A stretch of 64,000 bases of DNA from Squalus acanthias (taxonomy: Eukaryota): the NCBI GenBank assembly GCA_030390025.1, contig CM059431.1, positions 156,738,001 to 156,802,000 on the forward strand. The letters are read 5' to 3'. Positions 2,090 to 61,994 of this stretch are shown here, one piece after another; positions within the stretch are counted from its first letter, which is position 1; every line of letters begins with the position of its first letter. A program made the position numbers and the translations under genes. Under the pieces are notes generated by a model. That model did not search any database. It saw only the letters and a program-made list of their open reading frames with translations, and was not told the origin of the DNA.

Positions 2090-2795
2090 CAGAAAAATCT
2101 GGAATTCAGCTAGGTATGTATCTGATTCCACAGTTTATCGGGATCGTGCCAGGTATTCCTTGGGTTTCCCAGTGTGTCAGGATGCTACCAGGTGAGTATG
2201 TGGATTCAGAGTGTATCAGCTGCCGACCAGGTCTGTATGAGGTTTCAAAGTGTTTCAGGATCCTGCCAGGTTTGTATGGGTTTCCCAGTTTATCAAGTTC
2301 CTGCCAGGTGTGTATGGGGCTTCCCAGTGTATCAGGATCCTGCCAGGTGTGTATGGGGTTTCACAATTTATCGGGAACCTGCCAGGTTTGCAAGGGTTTC
2401 ACAGTGTATCAGGATCCTGCCAGGTGGGTATGGAGTTTCACAGTGTATCAGGCTCCTGCCAGGTGTGTATGGGGATTAACAGTGTTCCAGGTTCCTGACA
2501 GGTGTTTATGGGGTTTCACATTGCATCAGGATCCAGCCAGATGTGCAAAGTTTTCACAGTGTATCAGGATCCAGCCAGCTGTGTATGGGTTCCACAGTGT
2601 ATCAGGATCATGCCAGGTGTGTATGGGGTTTCACAGTGTATCAGGAACGAGAAAGTTATGGTGTTTCACTTTATATCGGTGTCCTGCCAGGTGTGCACGG
2701 GGTTTCACAAAATAACAGGTACACACAAGAAATGTATGGGTGTTTAAGTTTGTTAGGATTCTGCCAGGTTTGTATGGGGTCTCACAGTTTATGAG
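2090..2795. repeat. 39-bp minisatellite (CAGTGTATCAGGATCCTGCCAGGTGTGTATGGGGTTTCA)
   Basis: Tandem units spaced 39 bp (e.g. 2403 and 2442); produces spurious 13-aa repeat ORFs. Confidence 0.95.
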
Positions 2796-3107: not shown

Positions 3108-4460
3108 AAAGTCATAGAATCATAACGGCAAAGAACGAGGCCATGCGGCCCATCCAGTCCGTGCCGGCTCTCTGTAGAGCAATTCAGTCAGTCCCATTCC
3201 TCCGCTCTATCCCCATAGCCCTGCAAGATTATTTCCCTCCAGTGCCTATCCAGTTTCCTATGAAAAACATTGAGTGTCTCCGATTCCACCACTTCCGCTG
3301 GCAGCGAGTTCCAGGTCCTCACCACTCGCTGCGTAAAAAAGTTGTTCTCACATCCCCCCTGTATCTCTCGCCCAAAGCCTGAAATCTGTTTTCCCCTAGT
3401 CCTTGTATCATCAAATAGTGAGAACAGCCTTTCCCCGTCGAGCCTATCCAAACCCGTCATAATCTTGTACACCTCTATCAAATCACACCTCAAAATCCTT
3501 TGCTCTAACGAAAACAAATCCAGCTTTTCCAAAATAACAACAGAAAACTCTGGGATTCTCAGCAGGCCAGGCAGCATCCGTGGAAAGATAAACAGAAGTT
3601 TCCACGGATGCTGCCTGGCCTGCTGAGTTTCTCCAGCGTTTTCTGTTGTTATTTCGGATTTCCAGCATCCGCAGTATGTTGCTATTGTATCCAGCTTTTC
3701 CAACCTGTCCTTGTAGCTAACGTACCCCATCCCCTGAACCATTCTGGTAATTCTCCTCTGCACCCTCTCAAGCGCATTCACATCCTTCCTAAATTGTCGA
3801 GACCAGAACTACACACAATACTCCAGTTGTGCCTAACCAGAGATTTGCAAAGGTTCGGCAGAACTTATTTATTTTGCACTGAATACCTCTATTTATGAAG
3901 ACCAAGATTTCATAGGCTTTGTTAACCACTCTCTCAATTTGTCCTTCCACCTTCAAGGACATATTCACATTAACTCCCAGTTCACTCTATGCGTGCAAAA
4001 TTTTTAATATTGTGCCATTAAGTGCATATTGCCTCTCCCTGTTCCTTCTGACAAAATGCATCACCTCACACTTCTCTGTATTAAATTCCATCTGCCACTT
4101 ATCTGCCCATTCTGCTAGACTTTCTAAGTCTTGTTGCAGTCGATTGGTATCATCATGACTTTTTGCCACACCCCGAAGTTTGGTGTCATCGGCAAATTTA
4201 GAAATTGTAATATGTATTCTAATATCCAGGTCATTAATATATATCAAAAAACCAGTGGCCCCAGCACTGACCCTTGGGGAACACCACTGTACACCATCCT
4301 CCAGTCTGAAAAACACCCATTTACCAAAACTCGCTGTTTTCTGTCCTTAAGTCAATTACTTATTCAAGCTGCCACTGACCCATCTATTCCATGAGTCTCA
4401 ATGTTGTTAACTAGCCTTGTATGTCGTACATTGTTAAACGCCTTCGGAAAATCTGTGTGG
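3108..4460 (-). mobile_element. 5'-truncated CR1 LINE (RT C-terminus and 3' UTR)
   Basis: YINDLD..SKFADDTKL, WADKWQMEFN..KC and FFTQRVV..WNSLP motifs; microsatellite tail at ~3108. Confidence 0.92.
3533..3688. mobile_element. Palindromic Penelope-derived short element inside the CR1
   Basis: Inverted arms 3532-3586 and 3599-3654; 15-bp TSD ATCCAGCTTTTCCAA at 3518-3532 and 3689-3703. Confidence 0.8.
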
Positions 4461-5449: not shown

Positions 5450-5548
5450 ATGAGGTCTGCAAATCATTAGAGTAATCTGGGCTGTTGAGCCCGCAGAGGG
5501 ACAAATTACCCTGATGCAATTGGGACTGTAGAGTTTAACCTGAGCAAT
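5450..5548. repeat. Diverged ~34-bp minisatellite, left part (ERV target site)
   Basis: GGGCTGTTGAGCCCGCAGAGG-type units that continue after 13609. Confidence 0.6.
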
Positions 5549-6694
5549 GGCAGGCTTCGCAAATTCCCCCAGAAACTCCAATAGAGCCATAAAGGGAGTG
5601 ATCTTTGGACTTTTCATACAAACCTGGGATGATGGGACCTCAGTGAAGTGATTTGATGTAAAAACCTAAAGATCACAAGAAGAAAATCTGAGGAAACTAA
5701 TTTTTCTGAATCTTATTGTTGGGAGAGACATTTTTTTTCACAGACAAGCTGCGAGGGGCGTGGCCAGTCAGTGAACGGATCAAGCTGTCTGGGAATTGTT
5801 TGAGACAATGCAAAACTCCCAAACACATTCAAATATGGATCCCCAGGGGCAAACAAAATGCTGGAAATCTAAAAACGATTCAATGACAATATAACTTCGA
5901 TCACACAGTTTCATACCCATTATCCCATCAAAAAAACAATCAACCAGGTATCCAGAGAACCGATTTAAAAGCTCGCCAACAGAAGGACAATAGAGTGAAG
6001 ATTTGGCGCGTAGATAAGGCCGTGTTTTAAATCGTAAAGCGATTAACACTGAGCAAAAACTATCGGAACTGGCAAGCCCGCCTAAAACTAGACAATTGGA
6101 CGAAGCAAGGGTCATTTACATTCAAAAAGGATTCGTTTTAGTAAGGGGTTTTTGAGCGCGAAAAATGAACAATGTAACTTGAAAGCCTGTGCCATAATCT
6201 CTCTCTTTGGACTGACTGGCGACGCGGACACAGCTCTCTCCCTGCTGCAGCAAAACTTACCACAGGCCACGAGGAAGATGACCAGCACGCAAGAAGAAAC
6301 CATAAGGGCCTTCCGGAGTCCCTTTAAACAAAAAGTCTCTAATACCCTGTCAAGGATTCGTTGGTGAGCATTATCCCTGATCTCCTGAACCCAAAAATCC
6401 TAGCCAGATAGTGGGATCTTTGGGAGGGATAAGGTTTTGTTTGATATATTGTCATTTCCCTCGCTTGTACCGTGTGTTCCCTAAATCTGTGTTTCAGTAA
6501 TAAGTGTGTTTCAAGATTGTTACCTCTTTTTCTTTTAATAAAGAAAATTTCTTTCATCAGACCCTGTTTACTGCAATTTTGTTCACAACCCCTAAATAAG
6601 CCCAAAGTCTAGGAACCGGAGGGGTGTTGGAGTGATTCGAACCGCTCACTGTGTCAGAAAGCGAAGGCTGACCCCACATAAGATACTCCTAACA
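5549..6694 (+). repeat. 5' LTR
   Basis: Direct repeat of 12464-13608 (13 mismatches in the first ~152 bp); ends in ACA; AATAAA at 6537-6542; 5' TG mutated to GG. Confidence 0.95.
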
Positions 6695-6697
6695 TAA

Positions 6698-6716
6698 TGG
6701 CGACCGCGGCAGGACT
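6698..6716 (+). promoter_or_regulatory. Primer-binding site complementary to tRNA-Arg(TCG) 3' end
   Basis: TGGCGACCGCGGCAGGACT, 3 nt after the LTR; complements the recalled vertebrate tRNA-Arg-TCG end ...AGTCCTGCCGCGGTCGCCA. Confidence 0.85.
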
Positions 6717-6789
6717 TTGGCGAAAGGGTTGTGAAGCAGTAAATGCTGGTTTTGAGGAGAGAACAAAAATGGAAGAGAGGATGTCATCC

Positions 6790-8450
6790 TATGGACGCTG
6801 CAGCTGCATGGACTGAGAGGAAGTAATACAATAAGTCTGTGGACAAAGCCATATGGTTGGTCTGCTCCCAGAAACAAATGCAGCATATGGGGAAGCGCAT
6901 TCAGGCTCTCACAGAAGAGTTAAAGGAAGAAAGCCAACTGTCCCGTCCAAGAGCTATATCAGGGGATAGGTTGTTAGCAGAGCTCGGCACAAAAGATCAG
7001 GAACAGTCACAGATGCTGGAGGAACACCGTGCCAGTAAGGGATACCTCCAGTGTCAGGCCACCGAGGCCAAAAGTAGTGAACTGGCATTGCGGGTAGAGA
7101 ACACCCGCCTTGCCAAGCAATTAAGGGAACTCAAAGAGAAGTTAAACGATGTCCAGGCAGCCTATAGAGTAGCCAGTACAAGGGAGTTTGAGGTAGGGGA
7201 CCACGGCCCCTGTCAGAAGCAGATTGAGAGTCTGAACCTTGCTCTGTCGAAGGCAAAAGGCATGCTGTGCCTGATAAGCCCGGGTGCGGCCAGGGCAGAC
7301 CTGGAAGAGCAGGGGGAGACTGTTCGACCACCACCTGTGGCGCCAAGGAGAAGCTTGGTTAGGCAGCAGGAGCTGCAGACAATCTGTGAGGTTGACAGGG
7401 AGTGCACACCAGCACCTTTGGCGCCGAGTCTTGCCTCGGTCTGGCAGCAGGGAGAGGGGGGCGACCCGATGCAGGAGAAGTCGGAGCCAGGGCCAATGTG
7501 CCCAGCACGACAGCAAAAATTCGGCCCGCCCGCCGGTGGTGGAGGTCACGGACCCCTTGAAGGTCAATTCTTGGCTCCCCACGGTACACAACAGCTTAGG
7601 GCTATGGTAAGCCACCTGAGTAAAGTTACCCAAAAGGAAGAACCCCCAGTCCACTTCATGGACGTGGAACAATCAGGGTCCATTAACGAGTGTGACGATG
7701 CCGAAATGGCAAAATTGCTCCTGTTCTGATTAGATTGCAAATTGTACCAGTCACTCTCTACTGAGAGCAAGAGAGGACAAACCGGGTATGCTGCCCTCAG
7801 GGAGGATGTTTTAGAGGCCATGGGAATGAATGAGGGAAGTCCTTTCTCCCGGGTGGAGAAAACAGTGCAGTTCGCAGGGAAGACCCCACAGGCTTTCGCA
7901 GACAGGCTGTGGCCGCTGTACAGGGGTGCTTGTAATGGGGCTCTCGACAGGGCTAACTTGAACAGGGACAAGCTGGCCCACTGGCTCCGTAGCCTAGTGG
8001 CAAACAGCTTGCCACGAGTAAAAGCCAAGGCTGAGCTTTGGTTTGACCCAAGAGATCCCCGGGTCACCGAGGAGGCAGTGGTCAGGCAACTGACCCTAGC
8101 CTACCGGAACGGTAGGGGAGCTGAAGACACCCTACCGAAAGGGAAGGTGCATGAGATAAAGCCCAGTCAGGATAAGAAGGAGTGGCACCAGGAAGGTGGA
8201 AAACATTCCGACACGAAGCGTAATTGCTTCGGATGCGGGAAGAGGGGGCACTGGAGAAAGGACTGTTGAAATCCCTGGAAGGATATGCTAACAAATAATT
8301 CCCCAGCTTTTGCCTCAAAAGTAGAGGCACCGACCTCTTCCCCCACACTAGACACAATAGTAGCGGCCATCAGAGTCCTGTTTGGTGGTCCAGGCAAGTT
8401 AGCTACTGGTGCATTAATCCCATCTGCCCCCCCTAACGCAGACCTATGTC
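6790..8450 (+). pseudogene. gag: gag: coiled-coil N-terminus, capsid-like region, CCHC zinc knuckle
   Basis: ORFs 6839-7729, 7742-8269 and 8285- share one frame, split by stops; CFGCGKRGHWRKDC; 'QFAGKTPQAFADRLW' CA-CTD-like motif; ends approximate. Confidence 0.85.
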
Positions 8451-9081
8451 TGGAACCAGCGCAGCCTGTCTACCTGTGTTCCCCGGGGTACGATGTGAAG
8501 AAGGGGGTGGAGAAAGTGCAGGGGAGATGTTTGGTGGACACCGGAACAGCCAGCACGGTGGTCCATTCAGAAGACCTGAACAATTCACCCAGGTTTAACG
8601 GCGTCCCAACAGTTTAATGGGAATCAAAGGGAACAAGCAGGCTGGGGCAATGTCCAAACCTTTGGACATAGATTTAGGATCCCTCCATACCACGTGGGAG
8701 GGTAACCAAAAGGCCGACAAGTTGGCCAAGCAGGCGACCAGGGAAGGAGAGTTATGGGATCCCTATAAAGCAGGTCCGGTAGCTGCAATCCGAGACAAGG
8801 GAGGCACACAGAGGGTAGATTTGCACCCGGACTTAAAGCAGGTCCAAGCCCAGAATCCCGTCTTTAAGGCCGTCCTGGTAAAGAGAGAGAATGGGGAATC
8901 CCTAGAAGGTCCGTTCAGGGCAGAGGACGAGATTTTTAAAGAGAGTCACTGGCAAGCAGCCAGTAGCCTGGGGAGCCAGCACCAGAAAAATCTGCTGCTG
9001 TTAGAACCCCAGAGAGTCCATGGGTGGGAGATCAAACAATGCAAACTGTTTAAACCTAAAAGGGAACAGCCCCCAAGTTAG
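8450..9081 (+). pseudogene. pol: pro/pol remnant: aspartic protease joined to RNase H C-terminus and integrase ends; RT and IN core missing
   Basis: CLVDTG active site and GIKG flap followed directly by EGNQKADKLAK (RNase H end), then LKQVQAQNP and IKQCKLF; no YxDD or DDE motif. Confidence 0.8.
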
Positions 9082-9841
9082 AAATCCTCAGCCAGCAGCA
9101 GCTGTGGCAGACGCACAAGCTGCAGCGGGAGGGACAGTGTGTTGTCTCACAGGAGAGGTCACTCCACCGATTATGTGGGACTCAAGCACACCCCCAGTGG
9201 CCAGAGCCCTAAGAAGGTCTCCCCGCACACCACAGCAAAGGCTACTGTGGCCACAGGTGTATTTGTTTAGAGGGTCCCACCCAAAGAGGGTTACAACTCG
9301 AAAAAGAGCGCCCAAGAGCAGGGAGCGTTCTAAAGTTGGGGATTCCCAGCCGACAGCCTCCAACAGTGAGGGTTTCACAGCAGAGGTAGTACTGGAAGAA
9401 GAGAGAGGGAAGGGTCCCCCGCCCGCAGCCTCAGGCTGGGAGGAGCCCACAGATATGAACGAGGGCGCTGCAGCCACACAAAAGGGGGTAGTGTGCTGCA
9501 GCACAGGACGCAGCTGGGATGTTAAGATACCCCCAGCGGTTTTGAGGAAGGCCTTTTGGGTCCGGCGGTACAGGCCGCACTACACCAAGGTGTACAGGCC
9601 ATCCAGAGGCCACATAAGGCAGAGACGAAACAGGATTTAACCTGGCCGTCCGGAGACGGGCGGCAAATGTACAGAATTTTCGGTTTTAAGTAATTGTAGA
9701 TTTGGTGGTTATGGTTATCATTAGTTTAGTTGTTTGTAGAGTTGTTTTTAAGTTTAAGGGCTTGATTAATTATCCAGCCAGTGAATCTTTCTGGGACATG
9801 GATATATGTTTTGTGTGTACCCCTGCAGAAAGGACTTCGGG

Positions 9842-12230
9842 ATGAAAATGTTTCTGCTCCTGCTCGCATTGGTAGGGGTGAGCATCGCTGACCGAGGTGA
9901 CGTGGAGGACTCCCACATCTATTGGTGCTCAGGAGTGAGAGCACCAGTCGTTACCGCAGGGGGTGGCGAGCGGGGAGTGGAGGAGCTCGCCATCTACTTC
10001 CACGAGCGAAGCTGGCCAGGGTGGCTGTGGTCCAACTCTACTAAATACTCCAGCCAGCCCGGGTTCACGTACGGGGAGGCCTCCCTCCCATGCCCCAGAA
10101 TACTGGTCGTTGCCACAAGGGTCAGTGTCACCGAGGGGAAGCGTGTGTGCCTTACCTGTAAGGGATGAATTCCCTTGAATAGGTGGTGGTGGCTCAGGAA
10201 GCTGAGCAGGGACGCAGGGGAGCATACAGCCGACTGGGAAAGATTAGGGAACGACACCCACCGGACAATCACAGGGACCCAAGGAGGAGTTAGTGTTTGT
10301 TGGAATAAGTGCTGGAAGTCGGAACAGGAAGTCTATGTTTGTATGTGGGGATCAGAGGAAGCCTGCCCCACAGGGGTATACATCATCTTCCCCAGCCAAT
10401 GGCAAGATGCCGGGGAGGGGATAGGGTGGGATTCTAGCCTGCATGGTTGCGTGGTCCCACACATTCCGGTCCCAGTTATTGCCACTGAACTCGTGGCACA
10501 CACCCGAAAGCCCCTACCCACGACCCAGGTACCGAAAACCCTGGAAGAAAAGTGCCCTACCACCACCATGGGACCAGAGAATGGGTTAGTCCTAGTACCA
10601 ACCGAAAAGGTACTATACCAGGGGGTACACTATGCAGTAGCTTCAGTAATATTAAACCTTACCGAGGTATACTTACCTGAGTGGTGTCCTATGGAGACGG
10701 AGCAGCTGTACCAGGCCCTGCTAAAGGAAATGTTTAGGAAATTTTACGAATTTGATTTTGCCAATATAACAAACTAGAGCTATACAGAATACACCCTGAG
10801 AACACTGTGGGCACGGGTAGACAAAGAAGGGGAGCCTGGAGTGATGTCTTCAATGCCTATAGTACAGGGCCCTCTATTATAAATAGCCTGGATGACATAG
10901 AATTACAGATACAGATAAATGGTTTAAGAACCCAGTTAAAAAAGATCCTGATGGAAGGGAACACATTGGTAGGCTCAGAGCTACATGAGGATCAAGCTAT
11001 GACGTTTCATTTAAAGGAAATTATTGCAGAATTGGAAAGGTATGCCAAAACAGTAAATGCACACATACAGGAGGATAGGAATGCATCGGATCAGGCTGCA
11101 CAGAATGAGGTGTGTGTGCTGTACGGGGCATGGTTGCTGGGCGAGGGCCGTAGAAACCTGGAGGATTTAAAGCAAGGTCCTGGATCAGCAACAAGCACCT
11201 TGCAGCCCTCCACCCGGTTAGTAATACGATTAGCCCACGCCAATTTCGTCTAGCCTCTGACGCCTACCCTGTCCCAATAGATTGTGGGAGTTCAATTCAC
11301 ACTATCATGTGGATAGTAGTGAGAATGGCGGTCATTAGTGGGACAGCCCGACCCGTACCGGAATACAGGGTGAAGAACATTGGAGTCATTCAAGGGGGTG
11401 CACACATCCGTTTTACAGCGGTCCCACCTTTTGTCATCAAGTGGGAGCACGCCATGACAGGTACTGACCTCTCCGGGTGCCGGAGCCGGGGTTAACACAT
11501 AATACTGTGTCCCCAGCACTTGAATGCCTATTCCAAACCACAGTGCGGTTTAAAGCTGCTGGCGCACGACCTATCAATTGTACCATGGAGGTGATGGCAC
11601 ACGACCATGTTTCCCCACAGGTAGCCTATATAGTGGGTGGGACATATTGTGTCACCACAGTTGCGTCCCACTACCAGCATGGACACTTCTGGTGTCCGGT
11701 AAGTGACAGCAGTTTCTGCTTTAAACCCGAGGCAGAAGTTCAAGTGGCCCAGGAACGGATTGTCCCCATACCTGAAACCTCCACTTTTCACCTCACTGTA
11801 ACAGAAAACATCACCAACCTGCAAAAGTATGTGACTTACTTTTGATATAAAATTCCCCTTCTACCCGAACATTTTACAATCCTACTTAAAGCTGTAGAGA
11901 TTTCACAAACAATTTCTACAACCTGGAACAGAAAACAGTTGAAATAGTGGCAGAGATTTTGGATATAGTAGTGCCACCCTGGTGGGATATTTTCGAGAAT
12001 ATAGAGGTGCCTTCCTGGATCAGGATGGCTTCCCATCTTTTGTGGTCTGCCAGCTCGGGATAGTTCTCTACCTGCTGTGTACAAAGTGCAGGGGAAGGGA
12101 CGGGCAGCTCCGCTCCAGACACGAAGGGACTTGGAAGTGCATCAAAATAAAGGCTATGGCCAGAGATGCAACGAAACTTGAATTTTCTCTTTCAATAAAT
12201 AATTGTATGTGTGTTGTGTCATTTTTATGA
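9842..12230 (+). pseudogene. env: env: signal peptide, Ig-like domain, furin site, F-type fusion ectodomain, TM anchor
   Basis: MKMFLLLLALVGVSIA; VSVTEGKRVCLTC..WWW..EQEVYVC; RQRR/GAWSDVFNAYS; heptad; Cys-rich DLSGC, INCTMEV, YCVTT, SFCF; hydrophobic segment ~12030-12080; stops and frameshifts. Confidence 0.85.
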
Positions 12231-12454
12231 TGTGTATGATGTGATTTTTTCCAAGCTGTGCAGGGGTGTCGGACCCTCTCCGTGCTTGGATGTGAAATAA
12301 AGATTGATTCTTACCTGTATGTACCTGAAACACCACTTTCAGAAGGGGAATGAATGTTTGGGTCTTTAGTTGAAGTAATACAGGGGAAGGTTTGTTTTCG
12401 GGGATCGGAAATTTTGCTCACCTGTTAATGATACTAATTCAGTGTTAGTATCAC

Positions 12455-12463
12455 AGTGGGGGA
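12455..12463 (+). promoter_or_regulatory. Polypurine tract
   Basis: AGTGGGGGA immediately before the 3' LTR TGTAGG. Confidence 0.8.
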
Positions 12464-13608
12464 TGTAGGCTTCGCAAAATCCCCCAGAAACTCGAACAGA
12501 GCCCTAAAGGGAGTGTTTTTTGGACTTTTCGTACAAACTTGGGATGATGGGACCACAGTGAAGTGATTTGATGTAAAAACCTAAAGATCACAAGAAGAAA
12601 ACCTGAGGAAACTGATTTTTTTGAATCTTATTGTTGGGAGAGACATTTTTTTTCACTGACAAGCTGCGAGGGGCGTGGCTGGTAGTGAACGGATCAAGCT
12701 GTCTGGGAATTGTTTGAGACAATGCAAAACTCACAAACACATTCAAATATGGATCCCCAGGGGCAAACAAAATGCTGGAAATCTAAAAACGATTCAATGA
12801 CAATAGAACTTCGATCACACAGTTTCATAGCCATTATCCCATCAAAAAAACAATTCACCAGGTATCCAGAGAACCGATTTAAAAGCCCGCCAACAGAAGG
12901 ACAATAGAGTGAAGATTTAGCGCATAGATAAGGCCGTGTTTTAAACTGGAAAGCGATTAACACTAAGCAGAAACCATCGGAACTGGCAAGCCCGCCTAAA
13001 ACTAGACAGTTGGACGAAGAAAGGGTCATTTACATTCAAAAAGGAATTCGTTTTAGTAAGGGGTCTTTGAGCGCGAAAAGGAAACAGTATAATTTGAAAG
13101 CCTGTGCCATAATCTCTCTCTTTGGACTGACTGGCGACGCGGACACAGCTCTCTCCCTGCTCCAGCAAAACTTACCAGAGGCCACGAAGAAGAGGAACAG
13201 CACGCAAGAAGAAACCATAAGGGCATTCCGTAGTCCTTTTGAACAAAAAGACTCTGATATCCTGTCAAGGATTCGTTGGTGAGCATTATCCCTGATCTCC
13301 TGAAACCAAAAACCTAGCCAGATAGTGGAATCTTTGGGAGGGATAATGTTTTGTTTGATATATTGTCATTTCCCTCGCTTGTACCGTGTGTTCCCCGAAT
13401 CTGTGTTTAAGTAATAAGTGTGTTTCAAGTTTGTTACCTTTTTTTCTTTTAATAAAGTAAATTTCTTTCATCAGAATCTGTTTACTGCAATTTTGTTCAC
13501 AACCCCTAAATAAGCCCATAGTCTAGGAACCGGAGGGGTGTTGGAGTGATTCGAACCGCTCACTGTGTCAGAAAGCGAAGGCTGACCCAACTTAAGATAC
13601 TCCTTACA
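12464..13608 (+). repeat. 3' LTR
   Basis: TGT...ACA termini; AATAAA at 13451-13456. Confidence 0.95.
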
Positions 13609-14310
13609 CTATGCAGAGGATCATAGTCTCTGGCCTATTTGGTCGGTATATGGACTGAGTGCCGTAGGTTATGTAGTGGACCAAAACGCTTTGGGATAGT
13701 GGGCATGCAGAGTGTCATAGTACCCAGCAATTATGAAACTACAGAGCGTAGGAGTCCCGTCATCTACAGAGAATCAGTGTGCCCTGGGCTACGGGAAGAT
13801 AGAGGGAATATTTATCCTGTAGAGGTTCAGAATACCTGCGGCTACTGGGATTGTAGAAGCTCAGAGTAGCTTGGGCCATTGGGCTGCAAGAGGGGAAGCG
13901 TACACTGGGGAATTGAGCCTGCAAAGGAGCAAAGTACGATGGGGTATTGTGTGTGTAGTGTTTGTGTGGACCCTGGGCTATGTTGAGGGTTGGATTTAAC
14001 TGGGCTATGCAAAGGTTCAGTGTGCCCTTGGCTATGCAGAGTATCAGAGTTCCCTCGGCTATTGAGTTTGTAGAGGTTCAGAGTACCATGGGGAATATAG
14101 AGGGTCAGATGCCATTGAATCATAGGTCAGTAGAGGTTTAGAGTACTCTGTACTATTGGGCCCACACAGTATCAGAGTACCCTGTGCTATTGACCCTGCA
14201 GTCGTTCCGAATGCCCTGTGCTATTGGGCCTACAGCGGCTCAGAGTAACCCGGGCTATTGAGCCTACAGAGGATACGAGTACCCTGGACTATGCAGCGTT
14301 AGTTCGTAGC
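13609..14310. repeat. Diverged ~34-bp (and ~25-bp variant) minisatellite
   Basis: GAGTACCCTGGGCTATTGGGCCTGCAGAGGTTCA-like tandem units. Confidence 0.75.
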
Positions 14311-14445: not shown

Positions 14446-17400
14446 CATAGAAGCATAAAAGCATAGAAGATAGGAGCAGGAGTAGACCATTCGTCCCGTC
14501 GAGCCTGCTCCGCCATTTAATGAGATCATGGCTGATCATTCAACACGGTGGCATAGTGGTTAGCACTGGTGCCTCACAGCGCCAGAGACCCGGGTTCGAA
14601 TCTGGCCTCGGGTGACTGTCTGTGTGGAGTTTGCACATTCTCCCCGTGTCTGCGTGGGTTTCCTCCGGGTGCTCCGGTTTCCTCCCACAGTCCAAAAATG
14701 TGCGGGTTAGGTGATTTGGCTATGATAAATTGACCCTTAGTGTTAGGGGGAGATTAAATATGTGGGGTTACAGGGATAGGATGGGATATGTTAGGGGGAA
14801 TTAAATACGTGGGGTTACAGGGATAGAGTGGGATATGTGTCGGTGCAGGCTCGATGGGGATTCTGTGTGAGGGGGCAGGGACAGGGTACTGGATTTGGAT
14901 GATCAGCCATGATCGTATTGAATGGTGGAGCAGGCTCGACGGGCCGAATGGCCTACTCCTGCTCCTAGTTTCTATGTTTCTATGTCTATGTTTCATTCAA
15001 ATTCAGTACCCAGTTCCTGCATTCTTCGCCAAATCCCTTGATGCCTTTCGCCTTAACAAATATATCTATCTCTTTCTTGAATATATTTAATGAATTGGCC
15101 TCAACTGCCTCCTGTGGTAGAGAATACCACAGGTTCACCACTCTCTGGGTAAAGAAATTCCTCCTCATCTCAGTCCTAAATTTCTTACCCCTTACCTTTA
15201 GACTGTGACCTCTGGTTCTGGACTCCCCCACCATCGGGAACATCCTTCCTGCATCTAGTCTGTCTAATCCTGTTAGAATTTTAGAAGTTTCAGTAAGATC
15301 CCCTCTTATTCTTCGAAACTCTAGCGAATATAAGCTTAATCGACCCAATCTCTCTTCATAAGTCATTCCTGACATCCCAGGTATCAGTCTGGTAAATCTT
15401 CGCTGCACTCCCTCCATGGTAAGAACAGCCTTCCTCAGATAAGGCGTCAAAATGGATAACCTCGCATTTGTCCACATTATACTGCATCTGCCATGCAACT
15501 GCCCAATCACCCAAACTGTCCAAATCATACTGGAGTTTCTATGCATCCTCCTCACAGCATACACGTCGACCCAGCTTTATGTCTTCTGCAAAGTTAGAGA
15601 TATTACATCTAGTGCCCTCCTCTAGATCATTAATATGTATTGTGAATAGCTGGGGTCCTATCGCCGATCCCTGCGGTACCCCACTAGTCACTGCCTGCCA
15701 CTCGGAAAAAGTCCCGTTTATTCCAACTCTTTGCTTCCTTTCTGCCAACCAGTTCTCCATCCAAATCAATAACTTACCCGCAAACCCATGTGGTTTAACT
15801 TTGCACGCTAGTCTCTTATGCGGGACCTTATCGAAAGCCTTCTGACTGTCCAAATATAACACAGCCACTCGTTCTCCCTTGTCTATTCCACCAGTTACAT
15901 CCTCAAAAAATTCCAGTAGATTAGTCAGGCATGAGTTACCTTTTGTAAATCCATGTTGACTTTTTCCGATCCTGTCACTGTTTTCCAATGCTCTGCTATA
16001 ACATATTTTATAATAGACTCTAGCATTTTGCCCACTGCCGATGTCAGGCTTACCGGGTTATGATTCGCCGTTTTTTCTCTGCCACCTTTTTTATTAGTGC
16101 TGTTACATTAGCTACCCTCCAATCAATGTGAACGTTTCCAGAGTCTATAAGAATTTTGAAATATGACCAGCAATGCATCTACTATTTCTAGGGCCACTTC
16201 GTTAAGTACCCGAGGATGGAGATTATCAGGTCGTGTGGATTTATCGGCCTTCAATCCTATCAATTTCCCTAACACCATTTCCGTACAAATAATGATGTCA
16301 TTTAATTCCTCCCTCTCATTAGACCTTATGTTCCCCGACATCTCTGGGAGTTTATTTGTGTCCTCCTTTGTGAAGACGGAACGAAAGTACGTATTTAATT
16401 GAGCTGCCATTTCTAGGTTTCCCATTATAAATTCCCCTGATTCTGACTGCAAGGGACCTACGCTTGACTTCACCAATCTTTTTCACTTCACATATCTATA
16501 GAAGATGTTACTGTCAGTTTTTACGTTCCCTGGAAGCTTACTCTCATATTCTATTTTCCCCCTCTTAATTAATCCCTTTGTCCTCCTTTGTTGATGTCTA
16601 AACTGCTCCCAATCCATGGGTTTGCTGCTTTTTCTGTCCAATTTATATGTGCTCTCCTTGGATCTAATGCTATCCCTAATTTCTGTTGTTAGCCACGGTT
16701 GAGTCACCTTTTTTGTTTTAATTTTTTTCCAAACTGGAATGAACAAATTCATAGTTCATCCATGCGATCGTTAAATGTTTGCCATTGCCTATCCAACGTC
16801 AACCCTTTAAGTAATGCAACCCCAATCCATCCAAGCCAACTCGTGCATCATGCCATCGTAGTTTCCTTTATTTAAATTCAGGACCCTAGTCTCTGAGTCA
16901 ACTAATTCACTCTCCATCTTAATGAGGAATTCTATCATATTATGATCGCTCCTCCCCATGGGGCCTCGTAAAACAAAATTCCTAATTAATCCTTTCTCAT
17001 TAAATAATACCCAGTTTAAGATGCCCTAATCTCTGATTGGTTTCTCGACATATTCGTCCAGGAAACCTTCCCGTATACACTCTAGGAATTCCTCCTCCAC
17101 AGTATTGTTACTAATTTGGTTAGCCCAATCTTTCTGAAGATTAAAGTCACCCATGATAACTGCTGTGCTCTTATTGCATGCATCTCTAATTTCCCGTTTA
17201 ATGCCATCCCCAACCTCAGCATTACTCTTTGTGGATCTGTATACAACTCCCACTAACGTTTTCTGCCCCTTTGTATTTCTCAGCTCTACCAATACCGATT
17301 TCACATCATCAGAGCTAATTTATTTCCTTACTATTGTGTTAATCTCCTCTTTAACTAGCAATGCTACCCAACCTCCTTTTCCTTCTTGTGTGTCCTCCCT

Positions 17401-20950: not shown

Positions 20951-22669
20951 CTGAGTATTTTACATTTTTGTAGCACGATAGCCAGCTGATGGATGCCATC
21001 ATCTTGTATTCCACATGTACTAAGATTCAACTCTTCGATCAGTTCAACGGCCATTAGTGCGTTTGAAAGAACCGCAGAGTCAGAAGGTTTAAGAGGGCAT
21101 TGTGTGAATTTCATTGTCTTTATCGATGTTAATGCGGCCTTCATCAGTTTTATGTCTCCAAATTCAAGAAAATAATGCAATATCTTTAAGTGTGTCCTTT
21201 GGCTTTTCCCATCTTCCAAGGTCTGAACACGAATGTTTACATTTTCTGTGAGCCAATCCGACACACACTGGAATGCTTCAGAAGGAAATTGCCCCTATTT
21301 TCGTTCGAGCTGATCAGCTGAATTCCTTGTGGAGAGACCAGAAATAAACTGTAAAAATGTCTTAAATCTGTCGTCACTGCACGCGTGCCATTCCTTGAGC
21401 AGGCGTGTCAGGTCATCTCCTGGTGTCCTTAGACGTTTCATAAGTGCAGCAACAAAGTCATGCATAACGGAATGAGTGAATATGTAGTCAACACTACAAA
21501 GATCTTTGCCACGAATCTCCATCATAAACGCAGAGATAACATTGTAATGTTCGAGACTGTGGTGATAGATTTGTTTTTTCTTGAAAACAACGGTTTTGTT
21601 GCAAAGTCCCTTGTACGCTAACTCGCCCAGTTTCAGCAACATGTCGCGAGAGGTTTCCGCGTCGCAGCCGCATCTCTCTAAAAGGCTTGTGAATTAAGCG
21701 GAGAACACCAGTGTACATATTGTGACGGACAATGGTCTCTCCTCCGCTCCTTCTGCCCGGTGTGACTCTAATAATGAATCGAGGACCGAGCAGTACAGAG
21801 GATTATTGCACATGGTGTACAATGTCTCATTCTGCTCAATATACTCGATTACATCTGTCAAAAACTGCTCATCTCCAAAAAAACGGCGAAAATATTGCTT
21901 TATTTTCTCAGAGGTGAAACCCAGGATTTCGAAGGTTGGAATTAGATTCGCCTTTCCCATAGACTCCAGGGTCCACGGCCGGCTTTTGATCAGTACTGAG
22001 CAGCCCTTGAGCAGTTTCCCCTTTATGAGGCAGCGCACGATTTCTGACACGTCACAGAAGCACTCGGGATCGAAACGCTGATTTGGGGGGTCGTTGTTTC
22101 TCTGAATATCTGTGAAATCAATGGGTTGCCTAAATTCATCTAAATCATTAAATATAAACAATATATTTCCGGCTTGTTTCCACAAAAGTTTAAACTCATT
22201 TTCGAAATCGGGGTAGTAATCCAGGATCAGGCTATTTAGACAAGTTTTTCCTTTTATTAAATTTATTTTTCGAACCTTAAAAGGAAAGACAACTTTAAAC
22301 TGTTGGTATATTTTCCCTGCGGCCCAGTCACTGATTATCTTCTGTATCATGTTGCTTTTCCCAATCCCCGAGGCCCCAATTACCACGGTTGTCCCAGAAC
22401 TGCCTGTTTTAGCGAAACTCAGCAATTGATCCAGCTGAATCTCTTCCAGTTCATCCTCGATATCTTTCCTCTGTAATTCTTCAGGCTCTCTACCTCGGGC
22501 CATCAGTTCATTTTCAACAAGACTCCGCTCACCCAGTGAAGCAACAATCGTTACTTTAGTATATTTTTGATGCAGAAAAAATCTGCGAGGTCTTTCTTTT
22601 CTACAGCGGATTTGACTGTTATTTTCTCACTCTTTTTGCGGAGGTTGTCTTTGTGCTGTAGTTCTATCT
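20951..22669 (-). pseudogene. NACHT exon of the NLR pseudogene
   Basis: Walker A GASGIGKS, Walker B LFIFNDLDE, SRP, EILGF, CNNPLYC, FTHS..DFVAAL; three same-frame ORFs split by stops. Confidence 0.95.
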
Positions 22670-28199: not shown

Positions 28200-31100
28200 C
28201 GGACGATGATCTGAGATCCCAGGTTATATTGCACAGTGTATCACGATCATACCAGGTGTGCATTGGTTTCACCGTGTATCACGGTGCTACCTGCTGTATA
28301 TAGGTTTCCACAGTATATCAGGAAACTGTCAGTTGTGGATGGGGCTTCAGAGTGTATCAGGATAGTGAAAGGTGTTTATGGGGTTTCACGGTGTATCAGG
28401 ATACTTACAGGTGTTTAGGGGGATTCAAAGTACATCAGGATCCTGCAAGGTATTCATGCGGTTTCGCAATATATCGGGATCTGCCAGGTGAATATGACGT
28501 TACAACGTACATCATGATCCTGCAAGATATGGATGCGGTTTCACTGTATATCAGAATATGCCAGGTGCGGGTGGGCTTTCAAAGCCTACCGGGATCCTGC
28601 CAGGTGTGTATGGGGTTTCACATTTTGTCGGGATCATATCAGGCATCTGCGGGCTGAAAACTGTATGAGGATCCTGGAAGGTGTGTATGCGGTTTCAGAT
28701 TGTAACAGGATTCTAAGAAATATATGTGGAGTTTTAAATTATATCATGATCGTGCAATATGTTTAAGGGGTTTTGCAGTATACCGGAATCCTGCCAGGTG
28801 TGTATTTGGTATCAACAGTGTATAGGAATCGGGCCATGTGCGTCTGGGGTTTCACAGTGTATCCGGATCCTACCAGGTGTGTATGAGATTTTACCCTGTA
28901 TTTGGATCCTACCAGGTGTGTATGGGGTTTCAGAGTGTATCAGGATCCTGCCAGGTGTGTATGGGATTTCACAGTGAAGCAGGATCCTGCCAGGTGTGTA
29001 TGGGTATTTAAAGGGCATCAGGATTCTGCCAGGTGTGTATGGCATTGCACACTGTATCAGGATCCTGCTAGGTGTGTATGTGGTTTCGCAGTGTATAAGG
29101 ATACTGACAAGTGTTTATGGGGTTTCAAAGTACATCAGAATCTTGCAAGGTATGCATGTGGTTTCACAATACATCGGGATCTGCATCGTGAGTATGGGGC
29201 TACAAAAAACATCAGGATCCTGCAAGGTATTTAGGCTGTCTCACTGTATATCGGAATATGCCAGGTGCGTGTGGCCTTTCAAAGCTTATGACTGCTGTTA
29301 CGTTGGAAGTTCCAAGATTTTGACCCAGCGATGATGACGCATCGGCGATATACTTCTAAGTCAGGTTGCTGTGTGATTTGGAGGGGTACTTGGAGGTGGT
29401 TGTGTTCCCATGCGCCTTCTGCCCTTTCCCTTCTAGGTGAAAGCTTTCGCGGGTTTGCGAGGTGCTGTCGAAGAAGCCTTGGCGAGTTGCTGCAGTGAAT
29501 CTTGTAGATGGTACACACTGCAGCCACGGTATGCCGGTGGTGGAGGGAGTGAATGTTCAAGGTAGTGGATGGGATCCCAATCAAGAGGGCTGCTTTGTCT
29601 TGGATGTTCTCGAGCTTCTTGAGTGTTGTTGGAGCTACACTCATCCACGCAAGTGGAGAGTATTCCATCACAATCCTTACTTGTTCCTTTAAATATTTGA
29701 AAGGCTTTGGGGAGTCTTTGCCACAAGTTCACAGATTTCACAGTGCAGCAGGATGCTCTCAGGCGTGTATGGGGTTTCACAATGTATCGGGATCCTGCCA
29801 GGTCTGTAAGGGCATTTTTGTATATCGGGATCCTGCCAGGTGTGTTTGGTGTTTGACAGTGTATCAGGATCCTGCCAGGTGTGTATGGGGTTTGACAGTT
29901 TATCGGGATCTTGCCAGGGGTGTATGGGGTTTGCCAGTGTATCGGGATGCTGCCAGGTGTGTAAGGGTTTCTCATTGTTTCAGGAACCTGCCAGGTGTGA
30001 ATGTATTTCAAAGCATATCAGGCTCCTGCAAAGAATATACGAGTTTTCACATTTTGTCAGTATCATGTCAGGTATTTAAGGCTTTAACAGTGTATCACGA
30101 TCCTGCAAGTTGTGTATAGGTATTCGCAATTAATCAGGATTCTGTTAGTGATGTTCATGGAGTCACAGATTATAAGGATCCTTCCAGGTGTGTTTCAGAT
30201 TTTGTCGAGATTCTGTGAAATATATATATGGGGTATAAATTAAATCATGATCCTGCCACATGTTTAAGCGGTTATACAGTATATTGGCAATCATGTTAGG
30301 TGTGTATTTGGTTCCAAGAGGATTGGGATCGTGCCATGTATGTCTATGGTTTCACAGTGTAACAGAATCCTAACTAAAACCAGGGGTCAGAGTCTAAGGA
30401 TAAAGGGGAAGCCATTTAAGACTGAGATGAGGAGGAACTTCTTCACCCAGAGAGTGGTGAATCTGTGGAATTCTCTACCACAGAGGGTTGTTGAGGCCAG
30501 TTCGCTAAATATATTCAAAAGGGTGTTAGATATAATACTCACAACTCGGGGGATCAAGGGGAATGGCGAGAAAGCAGGAATGGGCTACTGAGGTAGCATG
30601 TTCAGCCATGAACGCATTAAATGGCGGTGGAGGCTCGAAGGACCGAATGGTCCACTCCTGCACCTGTTTTCTATGTTTCTATGTTTCTAACAGAAATGTA
30701 CGGGGTTTCACAGTGAAACAGGATCCGAACATCAATGTACGGGCTGTCACAGTGTAACAGGAAGCTAACAGGTGTGTATGTGGCTCAAAGCTATTCCAGG
30801 ATCCTGCAAGATAGGCATGTGATTTCACAATATATCACGATACTGCCTGGTGTCGATTGGGTTCCACTTTGTATTGGTTACTGCTAGGTTTGTATTGTTG
30901 TTCAAAGTGCATCGAAATCCCGCCAGGTGTTTATGGTGTTCCACAGTGTAACAGGATCCTGACAGGTATGTAAGGGTTTTAACAATGTATCAGGATCCTG
31001 CCCGGTGTGTATGGGGTTTCACAATGTATTCGGATTCTGGCATGGTGTGCTTGGTGGATCAGAGTGTATCGGTGTCCTCTCAGGTGTTCATGAGTTTTAA

Positions 31101-31490
31101 CATTGTATCTGAATCCTGCCAGGTGTGTATGGTGTTTCATAGTGTATCGGGATCCTGCCAGGTGTGTATGGGGATTCACAGCGTGTCACGATCCTGCCAG
31201 GTGTTGATGCGATTTCACAGTGTATCAGGATACTGCCAGGTGTGTATGAAATTTCACAGTGTAGCAGGATCCTTCCCGGTGTGTATGGAGTTTCACAATG
31301 TATGGGATCCTGACAGTTGATAATTGGGTTGCAAAGAACATCTGGATTCTGCAAGGTATGTATGCGGTTTCACTTTATCTCGTGAAGTGCCAGTTGCCTG
31401 TGGGCTTTCAAAGCGTATCATGATCCTGACAGAAATGTATGGGGTTTCTCATTTTGTCGTTATCATGTCAGGTATCTCCGGGTTTAATAG
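28200..31490. repeat. 39-bp minisatellite array (same family as 2090-2795), interrupted by LINE pieces
   Basis: Same consensus; insertions at ~29290-29730 (second-family LINE, minus strand) and ~30375-30690 (CR1 3' end). Confidence 0.93.
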
Positions 31491-46779: not shown

Positions 46780-48022
46780 AACTGGGAAAATAGATAAAGG
46801 AGAACCAGTAGATGTGGTGTATTTGGACTTTCAAACGACTTTCGATAAGGTCACACTTAAGAGATTAGCGTGTAATGTTAATGAACATGGGATTGGGGGC
46901 AAGGTATTGACTTGGATAGAGAACTGGTTGGCAGACAGAAAGCAAAGAGTTGCAATAAACGGGTATTTTTCCAAGTGGCACGCAGTGACTAGTGGGGTAC
47001 CGCAGAGACCGGTCCTTGGATCCCAGCTATTCACAATATATGTTAATGATCTAGACAAGGGAACTAGATGAAATATCTCCAAGTTTGCAGACGACACAAA
47101 ACTGGGTGGGCGTGTGTGCTGCGAGGTGGATGCCGAGAAACACCAGGATGATTTGGACAGGTTGGGTGATTGGGCAGAAGCGCAGCAGATGCAATATAAC
47201 GTGGATAAATGCGAGGTTATCCACTTTGGTGTCAAAAACAGAAAGGCAGATTATTATCTGAAAGGCAATAGATTTGGAGAAGGGGGAGTGCAACGAGACC
47301 TGGCTGTCCTTGTGCACCAGTCGCTGAAGGTAAGCATACAGGTGCAGCAGGCGGTTAAGAAGGGAAATGGTATGTTGGAGTTCACAGCGAGAGGTTTTGA
47401 GTACAGGAACAAGGATGTCTTGCTGCAGTTGTACAGGGCCTTGGTGAGACCACACCTTGAGTACTGTGTGCATGTTTGGGCGCCTTATCTGAGGAAGGAT
47501 GATCTTGCCATGGAAGGAGTTCAGCGAAGATTCACAAGGCTGATACCTGGGATGGCAGGAATGACGTATGAAGAGAGATTGGTTCGATTGGGCTTATACT
47601 CGCTGGAGTTTAGAAGAATGAGATGGGATCTCATTGAAACTTATAAAATTCTGACAGGACAGGGCAAACTAGATGCAGGAAGGATGTTCCCGATGGTCGG
47701 GGAGTCCAGAACCAGGGGTCACAGTCTAAGGATAAGGGGTAAGCCATTTAGGACAGAAATGAGGAGGAATTTCTACACCCAGAGAGTGGTGAACCTGTGG
47801 AATTCTCTGCCACAGAAGGCAGTAGAGGCCAATTCATTAAATAGATTCAAGAAGGAGTTGGATATATTTATTAAGGCTAAAGGGATCAGGGATATGGGGA
47901 GAAAGCAGGGACAGGGTACTGAATTTGGATGATGAGCCATGATCATATTGAATGGCGGAGCAGGCTAGAGGGGCCGAATGACCTACTCCTGCTCCTATCT
48001 TCTATGATTCTATGATTCTATG
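46780..48022 (+). mobile_element. 5'-truncated CR1 (same subfamily as 14446-18239)
   Basis: 272-aa RT C-terminal ORF 47114-47932; (TTCTATGA)n tail. Confidence 0.93.
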
Positions 48023-57900: not shown

Positions 57901-60033
57901 TAAGAGTTTTTTATAGTTATATAAAAAGAAAAAGGGTGTCTAAAGTAAATGTTGGTCCCTTAGAGGATGAGACCGGGAAATTAATGGTGGGAAATATGGA
58001 GATGGCAAATACACTGAATGTATATTTTCACAGAATCACAGAATCACAGAATCCCCACAGTGCAGTTAGAGGCCATTTCGGCCCATCGAGACTGCACCGA
58101 CAGACGTTTTTAATCCCCCTAATACTAAGGGTCAATTTATCATAGCCAAATCAACCTAACCCGCACATTTTGTATCAGTCTTTACAGTAGAGGACACTAA
58201 GAATATGCCAACAATGGACAAACAGGGTGCTATAGGAGGGGAGGAGCTAAACACGATCAAAATCACTAAGGAAGTGATACTCGGTAAAATAATGGGACTC
58301 AAGGCGGATAAATCACCTGGAACTGATGGCCTACCTCCTAGGGTGTTGAGGGAAGTGTGGTAGGGATTGTGGATGCATTGGTAATCATTTTCCAAAACTC
58401 GCTGGACTCAGCAAATATCCCGGCAGACTGGTAATTACTAATGTAACACCCTTATTTAAAAAGGGCAGTAGACAGAATGCTGGAAACTATAGACCGGTTA
58501 GCCTAACATCTGTGGTAGGTAAAATTTTGGAGTCCATTATTAAGGAGACATAAACGGGACATTTGGATAATCATAATTTAATAGGACAAAGTCAGCATGG
58601 TTTTATGAAGGGGAAGTCATGTTTGACAAATTTGCTGGAGTTCTTTGAGGAAGTAGCATACAGGGTGGATAAAGGAGAACCAGTGGATATGGCGTATTTA
58701 GACTTCCAAAAGGCATTTGACAAGGTGCCACACAAAAGATTATTCCTTAAGATAAAAAATCACAGTTTTGGGGGTAATATTCTGGCATGGATAGAGGATT
58801 GGCTATCTAACAGAAGGCAGAGAGTTGGGATAAATGGTTCATTCTCAGACTGGCAATCAGTAACTAGTGGTGTTCCGCAGGGGTCAGTGCTGGGTCCCCA
58901 ACTCTTTACAATCTATATTAACGATTTGGAGGAGGGGACCGAGTGTAATATATCAAAGTTTGCAGATGATACTAAGATGGGAGGGAAAGTAGTGAGTGAG
59001 GGGGACATAAAAAATCTGCACGGGGACATAGACAGGCTAAGGAAGTGGGCAGAGATTTGGCAGATGGAATACAATACTGGAAAGTGTGAGGTTTTGCACT
59101 TTGGCAGGAAAAGTAGTAGCGCAAGTTATTATCTTAATGGCAAGAAACTGGAAAGTACTGAAGTACAAAGGGATCTGGGGTCCTGGTGCACGAAACTCAA
59201 AAGGTTATTATGCAGGTGCAGCAAGTGATTAAGAAGGCCAATGGAATGTTGGCTTTCATTGCTAGGGGGATAGTATGTAAAAATAAGGAGGTATTGCTTC
59301 AATTTTACAGGGTATTGGTGAGACCGCACCTGGAATATTGCATGCAGTTTTGGTGTCCATAATTAAGAAAATACATACTTGCTCTCGAGTCAGTACAAAG
59401 AAGTTTAACTCGGTTAATCCCGGGAATGAGGGGATGGACATATTTGGAGACGTTGGATAGATTGGGACTATACTCATTGGAGTTCAGAAGAGTGAAAGGC
59501 GATCTTATTGAAACTTATAAGATTTTGAAGCGGTTGGATCGGGTGGATGCGGGGAGGATGTTCCCAATGATGGGTGGAACTAGAACTAGGGGGCATAGCC
59601 TTAGAAAAATGGGCTGTTCTTTCAAAACTGAGATGAGAAGGAACTACTTCACTCAGAGGGTGGGAGGTCCATGGAATATGCTGCCCCAAAAAGCTGTAGA
59701 AGCTACATCATTGCATAAATTTAAAACAGAAATAGACAGTTTCCTAGAAGTAAAGGGAATTAAGGGTTACGGGGAGCGGGCAGGAATTGGGACATGAGTC
59801 TAGGTTCGGATCGGTGATGCCCTTGTGGGTAGCATAGCGGGCCCAGGGGCCGTGTAGCCTGATCCTGCACATATTTAGTGTGTCCAATTCTGTTAGGTTC
59901 AGGAGATGGTTCTGTGATAGTAGATTGGCGGTTAGGATCAGATCAGCCATGATCTTATTGAATGGCGGAGCAGGCTCGAGGGGACAATTGGCCTACTCCT
60001 GCTGCTATTTCTTATGTTCTTATGTTCTTATGT
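54929..60033 (+). mobile_element. Full-length CR1 (repeated 5' UTR, ORF1 from 55713, ORF2, 3' UTR)
   Basis: ORF1 CYCCEMW..CHKC plus esterase; APE-RT; (TTCTTATG)n tail; TCA at both junctions. Confidence 0.93.
58029..58166 (-). mobile_element. 5'-truncated HE1 SINE inside the CR1
   Basis: Reverse complement matches the 3' part of the SINE at 14544-14992; (CAGAATCA)n tail. Confidence 0.8.
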
Positions 60034-61994
60034 TCATTACAGCCTTGGGTCAAACTTGGACAAAAGGAGCTGAATTCCAGAGGAGAAGGGAGAGTCAATC
60101 CCCTTGTCAAAATTTAACCGAGTGTGGCAAGAAGGAGCCCAAGTAAAACTGAAGTCAATGGGATTCAAGGGGAAAACTCTCCACTGGCTGGAATCATACC
60201 TAGCACAAGGACGATGGTTGTGGTGATTGAAGGTCAATCATCACAACCCCAGGATATCACTGCAGGACTTCCTCAGGGCTGTGTCCTAGGCCCAACCATC
60301 TTCAGCTGCTTCATCAAAGACCTTGCCTCCAAAATAAGGTCAGACATGGGAATGTTCGCTGATGACTGCACAGAGTTCAGTGCCACTCACAACACCTCAG
60401 ATAATGAAGCAGTCCAGGTCCGCATGCATCAAGACCTGGACGACTTTCAGGCTTGGGCTGAAAAGTGGCAGGTAACATTCGCGCCACGGAAGTGTCAGGC
60501 AATGAGTATCTCCAACAAGCGAGAGACCAACCACCGCCCCTTGATATTCAATGGCATTACCATCGCCGAATCCCACACCATCAACATCCTGGGAGTCACC
60601 ATTAACCAGAAACTTAACTGGAACAGCCACATAAATACTATGGCAACAAGAGCAGGTTAGAGGCTCGGTATTCTGCGGCGAGTGTCTCACCTCCTGACTC
60701 CCAAAAGCCTTTCCACCATCTACAAGGCACACGTAAGGCGTGTGATGGAATACTCCTCACTTGCCTGGATGAGTGCAGCTCCAACAACACTCAAGGAGCT
60801 CGACACCATCCAGGACAAAGCAGTCAGCTTGATTGGCACCCTATCTACCACCTTAAACATTCACTCCATTCACCACCGGCATACCGTGGATGCAGTGTGT
60901 ACCATCTACAAGATGCACTGCAGCAACTCGCAAATGCTTCTTCGGCAGCACCTCCCAAACCCGCGACCACTTCCACTTAGAAGGACAAGGGCAGCAGACG
61001 CATGGGAACACCACCACCTCCACGGTCCCTCCAAGTCATACAGCATCCTGACTACGAAGTATATCGCCGATCCTTCATCGCCGCTGGGTCAAAATCCTGG
61101 AACTCCCCAACTAACAGCACTGCGGGAGTACCATCACCACACGGACTGCAGCGGTTCAAGAAGGCAGCTCACCACCATCTTCTCAAGGGCAATTAGGAAT
61201 GGCCAATATTTGCTCAGAAGTCATGCCTGAGTGACTGAATGAGTATTTTACACCTGTCTTTACAAAAGAATAGAATAACGTTTTTGGTGGTGTAAAGAGC
61301 GGGGAGCAAACATTATAGATAGTATAAAAGTAAACATAAAGCTGTTGCTATAGAGTTTGGCACCACTTAAAGTCAATAAGTCAACCGATCCACTTGGGAT
61401 ACATCCCAGCATGCTGAGGTAAGCTAGGATGGAGATAGCAAAAGATCTATCTACAGTCTTCGTATTGTAGATGTGCCAGAATACTGTAGGGTTGCAAATC
61501 TGAAACCCCAATTAAAACGGGGAGAAGAATGAACCTGATTACCTGATAATCAGTCTTATGTTAGTTGTGGCAAATCTGCTAGAGAGCATTATCAAAGACA
61601 AAATTATTTAGCACTTGGAGATGAGCTGGTTACTTAGGACAGCCAGCCGAATTTTTTCAAGGCAAATCGTGTCCGATTAACCTGATTGCGTTTCTCATGA
61701 AGTAACAGACATGGTTGATTAATTTACTGCCGTAGATATTGTATGTATGGACTTCCAAAAGGCATTTGACAAATTACCACATAACACAATTATTCGGGAA
61801 ATAGAAGGACAAAATATTAAGGGGATAATTATTGATTAGTGAATAGGAGCAGAGCATTGTAATGATACAATGAGTTTACGACTGGAGAAAAGTATGCAGT
61901 GGGGTCCCCCAGGGTTCGCTAATAGGAAATTGTTTATCTTGTTATATATAAATGACCTGGACTTGGGTACAGGGAGTACAATTTCGAAGTTTTC

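Follow-up and report, generated by a model that had tools for sequence, protein, structure and literature searches.

The window analyzed here is a 64,000 nt stretch of the Squalus acanthias genome (contig CM059431.1, positions 156,738,001 to 156,802,000, forward strand). It carries an endogenous retrovirus (ERV) at 5549..13608, all features of which lie on the plus strand. The 5' long terminal repeat (LTR; 5549..6694, 1,146 nt) ends in CA and starts with GG, where sibling copies have TG. The 3' LTR (12464..13608) runs from TG to CA. The LTRs aligned over ~1,145 nt with 1,077 matches, 66 substitutions and 4 gap columns, giving 94% identity and a Kimura two-parameter distance of 0.060. Sibling LTR distances were 0.008-0.041, placing the window copy among the older family members. 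A 19-nt primer-binding site (PBS; 6698..6716) is complementary to the 3' end of tRNA-Arg(TCG) from genes of the same genome. The PBS-complement pattern had 422 exact genome matches and both loci tested were tRNA-Arg(TCG) by ARAGORN. Tandem arrays of tRNA-Arg(TCG) with 1,623-nt spacing were seen elsewhere in the genome (G000 C26, ~39-42 Mb). A short polypurine tract (PPT), GTGGGGGA (12456..12463), lies directly 5' of the 3' LTR. An earlier sequence-only reading had described a provirus ordered LTR, PBS(Arg), gag, pro, pol remnant, env, PPT and LTR, and the LTR alignment, PBS and PPT bear this out.

The same reading had given the element a 4-bp target-site duplication (TSD). The window flanks, CAAT (5545..5548) and CTAT (13609..13612, adjoining the 3' LTR), match at only three of four bases. 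Seventeen sibling end-pairs were tried, three of which had no PBS match and three of which had one end unresolved. Among the 11 loci with both ends resolved seven had perfect 4-bp TSDs, two matched at three of four bases and the remaining two, which represent one duplicated locus, had only 3 bp in common. The siblings show that the TSD length of the family is 4 bp.

The window element is a dead copy in which gag, pol and env are each broken. The gag remnant (6770..8449; start approximate, 5' end disrupted) has in-frame stops at 7727-7729 and 8267-8269. Its N-terminal half is heptad-rich as judged by eye and not by a coiled-coil predictor, and it presumably includes a capsid region. A single CCHC knuckle (8225-8266) matched Pfam zf-CCHC with an E of 0.0055, below the curated cut-off. 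A truncated protease (8450..8697) keeps its DTG motif, lacks its C-terminal part and is frameshifted. Fused straight onto this stub is a relic of the RNase H C-terminus and linker (8698..8930; end approximate), of which 8698-8881 corresponds to Pol amino acids (aa) 774-838 of a full-pol copy at 68% nt identity. An integrase (IN) C-terminal remnant and a Pol tail of ~190 aa follow (8931..9640; start approximate), with 95% identity to the full-pol copy over 9031-9679. Compared to that copy the reverse transcriptase (RT), tether, most of RNase H, the IN zinc finger and the IN catalytic core are absent, the deletion spanning ~Pol aa 90-773 and most of the integrase. The tail (9030-9640) is 95% alike in deleted and full-pol copies, far less so in other subfamilies, and had no Pfam match. 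The env remnant (9842..12182) is interrupted by a stop at 10166-10168 and several frameshifts. A signal peptide and an N-terminal domain, the latter weakly Ig-like, lie ahead of an F-type core starting at ~10550. The RQRR site (10819-10830) is followed by a heptad, a Cys-rich region and a second heptad, and a transmembrane segment lies near 12030-12080.

The 3.7 Gb genome was searched with the gag C-terminal open reading frame (ORF), which gave 150 scored matches at 86-100% identity from 6,223 candidates. Twenty siblings were fetched from the 150, namely the ten top matches plus a further ten, most of which had long open frames. RT was missing in 19 of the 20 and one had a full pol, while a deletion junction motif was common to 17. 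Full-pol copies are ordered protease, RT, tether, RNase H and integrase, giving a dual RNase H. Eighty-eight tether-RNase H matches of the full-pol type were scored in the genome. Exact 27-nt patterns gave 275 matches for the deletion junction compared to 111 for RT, both numbers being floors and not copy numbers, and reversed control patterns gave zero matches. Gag identity between full-pol and deleted copies was 93-94% (aa) and the Pol tail was 95% identical (nt). The protease and RNase H relics had only 67-68% DNA identity to full-pol copies. Several deleted copies contain the pol relic as one in-frame ORF of ~400 codons (L040:727-1932; also L024, L029, L030 and L039), which joins three distant Pol segments and has no selection signal among copies. 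Five further loci, taken from lower-identity matches, belong to diverged subfamilies (70-88% nt identity) with an unchanged env type.

The dispersed copies have their own TSDs and share one junction, indicating that the deleted form itself retrotransposed. As it outnumbers the full-pol copies it likely spread with a helper, and on sequence grounds the RT and integrase were likely borrowed from full-length relatives. Reverse transcription primed by tRNA-Arg and integration would have been supplied in trans by helper copies, because the deleted form retains LTRs, PBS, PPT, gag and env. The deleted form probably also recombined repeatedly with its helper, because gag and the Pol tail nearly match those of full-pol copies and the relics of protease and RNase H do not. 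The family is a clear example of a pol-less, env-keeping form more numerous than its helper.

The fold of Env was assessed on the natural open frame of a sibling and not on the window copy. The family profile matched paramyxovirus F0 with an E of 2e-5 and a Foldseek search with the sibling Env model matched the paramyxovirus F type with an E of 1e-11, in agreement with the F-type layout with RQRR read from the window. No CX6CC or ISD-like (immunosuppressive domain) motif was found in the three window frames or in the unbroken sibling Env, as had also been claimed, and a gamma-type Env of a class I ERV was ruled out. The family Env is predicted to have a paramyxovirus-F fold, like the measles-type fusion protein. 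Entry would rely on a class I F-type fusogen, cleaved by furin and with predicted fusion activity. Against the most diverged subfamily, with dS close to saturation, env had a dN/dS of 0.11-0.12, compared to 0.49 for a closer subfamily. Such selection would imply infectious spread in the family's past.

The Env of snakehead retrovirus (SnRV) and those of 17 foamy viruses (up to 18.9 bits) scored on the shark-family Env profile, the lokiretrovirus (Loki) rows scored on it being Gag-Pol or Pol models. Identity to the collinear SnRV Env was ~20%. Walleye epidermal hyperplasia virus 1 and walleye dermal sarcoma virus Env were Foldseek matches to the F-type model in BFVD, and by this modelling epsilonretrovirus Env may be F-type too. 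The F-like Env had been taken as a hallmark of lokiretroviruses, which does not hold as SnRV, foamy (PMC11468914) and walleye epsilonretrovirus Env carry the same signal.

Other BFVD matches to the F-type model included an abalone herpesvirus protein, ranid herpesvirus ORF72 and a fish filovirus glycoprotein. Weak Ig-like matches were obtained for the N-terminal part of Env (window 9842-10550; P0191; L071), to Ig_3 with an E of 0.016 and, in a homolog, to V-set with an E of 0.045. This part is highly variable among homologs, suggestive of an exchangeable receptor-binding module ahead of the F core. Three shark gene models (P0122, P0123 and P0188) join Env-family pieces to Niban-1-like, cadherin-related and FBXO15 proteins, which could reflect exonised env or faulty annotation. 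Three Env homologs of equal length (675 aa; P0186, P0200 and P0201) lie on separate Bombina scaffolds and point to the recent spread of an amphibian family with an F-type Env.

To place the family, RT, IN and RNase H sequences of siblings were compared to those of known retroviruses. An RT protein search gave 164 proteins, of which 120 were listed. Among the matches listed the nearest was one protein at 83%, followed by amphibian and coelacanth 'NYNRIN-like' proteins and one further protein at 50-54%. SnRV had 43% identity and Loki-labelled rows ~31-42% (mostly 32-38%). The sibling RT motif is LPQGFHNSP compared to PFGYxN in Loki, and each of the 24 Loki rows in data set S3 of PMC7947760 has PFG. 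The sequence taken as the SnRV genome was a 10,688-nt contig (L071) retrieved with P0022, and six of 17 foamy-type genomes found by motif scan served as foamy references. Three RT trees of 73, 38 and 46 rows were built, with near-duplicates and many bird class I rows omitted. The query fell among the canonical retroviruses in all three and Loki formed a separate clade. The 46-row tree grouped the query with SnRV and amphibian, coelacanth and turtle ERVs (support 86/85), and a second tree gave the SnRV grouping a support of 89. Foamy viruses were not joined to the query in the best RT tree, which had 46 rows. A clade of the query and its 83% relative with Loki was rejected by the approximately unbiased (AU) test under LG+G4 (p 0.0018) and a mixture model (p 0.022). 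A CCHC knuckle was present in the Gag of the shark family and SnRV and absent from the five long Loki gene models examined and from three foamy Gag rows. Shark-family Gag matched SnRV Gag weakly (E 0.003-0.014 in a 14-sequence set).

An env-capturing relative of Ty3/Gypsy had been offered as one origin of the element. The top look-alikes of Env in the ESM Atlas are arthropod Gypsy and Baculo_F clusters (0.93-0.94), as would suit an errantivirus-like retrotransposon with a captured F-type env. Full-pol copies have the tether and second RNase H, and the best solved-structure matches of the RT were foamy and MLV-type (E 1e-46 to 1e-39) ahead of Ty3 (4e-31). Gypsy rows formed a separate 100/100 clade in the RT trees. 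A Ty3/Gypsy identity was refuted by the RT trees and the dual RNase H, and such an origin is scarcely credible.

The sequence-only reading had favored a shark lokiretrovirus, which the LPQG motif, the position of the sibling RT among canonical retroviruses and the AU rejection contradict. Nesting inside Loki is largely refuted by these sequence comparisons. That the family is not a lokiretrovirus is well supported, and that it belongs to the SnRV clade is moderately supported.

Several points weigh against this placement. The 20 siblings were chosen from top gag matches and are a non-random sample. Loki and SnRV labels were assigned by eye against the published alignment (S3 of PMC7947760), P0022 matching SnRV, P0067 matching Loki-Lro and rows with like motifs being labelled Loki. 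The trees contained no beta-, delta-, lentiviral, fish-foamy or Odin rows. The SnRV grouping never reached starred support and was replaced by a basal polytomy in the 38-row RT tree. Both the query with foamy (p 0.2) and a clade of Loki with the nine-row query group (p 0.087) survived the AU test. The integrase scored 191-215 bits against seven of eight Loki rows (106 for the eighth, a partial row) compared to 130 against SnRV. The IN tree (42 rows, no CGIN1 row) was a polytomy in which the query with Loki was not rejected (AU p 0.056). In the RNase H tree (37 of 39 rows) Loki and foamy viruses formed a clade (93/84) without the query, which joined their side only through a weak branch (71/96). 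The PBS also differs from that of L071, with no match within 3 mismatches.

The IN and RNase H results and the survival of the wider query group with Loki would suit a lokiretrovirus or a Loki sister group, the first in cartilaginous fishes. An F-type Env and dual RNase H are both Loki features. Dual RNase H is, however, common to all retroviruses and an F-type Env occurs in several lineages, and the RT identities, the RT motif, the AU rejection under two models and the Gag knuckle all point away from Loki. This explanation is very improbable. The family could instead be a deep canonical lineage of its own with the amphibian, coelacanth and turtle 'NYNRIN-like' ERVs, and no nearer to SnRV than to foamy viruses. 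The basal polytomy, the surviving foamy link and the low Env identity to SnRV would fit this, as would the long SnRV branch (0.73-0.88) and the position of SnRV in the IN tree, away from the query and beside a long bird ERV row. SnRV was grouped with the query in two of three RT trees, however, the Gag layout of a knuckle and an in-frame stop before pol is that of SnRV and not that of the knuckle-less foamy Gag rows, and published trees put a shark ERV lineage with SnRV (PMC4422223). A separate deep lineage is considered unlikely. With good though not full confidence, the element is a defunct provirus with a pol deletion, from a large cartilaginous-fish family that is likely of the SnRV clade, has a predicted F-fold Env and likely borrowed its RT and integrase from a helper.

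A NACHT-domain ORF of a shark-type NLR gene lies ~8 kb downstream of the provirus (21694-22626, minus strand). Its best match was a Heterodontus NLRP3-like protein (60%) and 26 of 27 matches were chondrichthyan proteins, confirming the cartilaginous-fish host proposed from sequence. A tandem repeat family with a 39-nt period recurs in the window (2129-2792, 28232-29267, 29736-30003 and 30697-31448) and an array with a 34-nt period lies just 3' of the provirus (14132-14292). Non-LTR retrotransposon RT fragments are present at 3188-3808, 14986-16057, 47072-47932, 58554-59228 and 60118-61230; by eye we take these to be CR1/L2-like.

Lokiretroviruses were defined by Wang and Han (PMC7947760), who scored none of six chondrichthyan genomes as positive, in line with the earlier statement that Loki was unreported from this group. 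SnRV-like shark ERVs are already published and the window element is another such ERV. An elephant-shark ERV lineage clusters with SnRV (PMC4422223), and clade Huo and SnRV-like ERVs have been defined (PMC6001957, PMC4977317). From the F-like Env, PMC9040795 favors an env gain by lokiretroviruses independent of canonical retroviruses. Foamy Env has been described as F-like (PMC11468914), and the walleye virus Env, without gamma hallmarks, has been termed a recent development (PMC9967133). No paper calling SnRV-clade Env F-like was found in a search that missed most subscription papers, so such a report is possibly in print.

The F-like Env has so far been presented as a lokiretrovirus peculiarity, and its signal is now seen in a canonical family, in SnRV and, by Foldseek, in walleye Env, beside foamy viruses. 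It is conceivable, though somewhat doubtful, that the F-type Env is the ancestral retroviral envelope, that gamma- and beta-type Env replaced it later and that Loki made no independent env gain. Such an ancestral Env would cover Loki, foamy viruses, the SnRV clade (the shark family, amphibian ERVs and culturable SnRV) and the walleye epsilonretroviruses. An F-type Env running through canonical fish retroviruses bears on the origin of retroviral env and makes it testable. SnRV is a cultured virus and its Env structure is solvable.

Among known systems the shark family likely stands closest to SnRV. Both have a coiled-coil Gag with one CCHC knuckle, a stop separates gag from pol within a single frame in each, and their Envs are homologous, with the same F-like signal and no gamma-type motifs. 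The SnRV PBS, which we take to be that of another tRNA-Arg, anticodon included, differs in sequence from the Arg(TCG) PBS of the shark family. The Env is ~780 aa in the shark family compared to ~1,100 aa in SnRV, and no SnRV-type 3' ORF was seen between env and the LTR. Unlike in SnRV the pol-deleted form is dominant, and the shark-family IN did not group with that of SnRV. RT grouping in two of the three trees would place the family, with moderate support, in the SnRV clade of Orthoretrovirinae, or clade Huo (PMC12193657, PMC6001957). CmiERV lineage I of the elephant shark (Han 2015, PMC4422223), compared by description only, is likewise a chondrichthyan ERV lineage that clusters with SnRV and has an Env homolog downstream, but few copies are reported compared to hundreds in the shark family. 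Lokiretroviruses (PMC7947760) share the LTRs, gag-pol-env order, tether and RNase H, and their Env has an RXKR-like site, fusion peptide, coiled coil and likeness to paramyxovirus F. The shark family differs from them in RT motif, tree position and Gag zinc knuckle, and no smc-like gene was seen in it. Foamy Env (PMC11468914) has a core like paramyxovirus and pneumovirus F, as in the shark family, whose Env differs in having an N-terminal signal peptide and another N-terminal domain.

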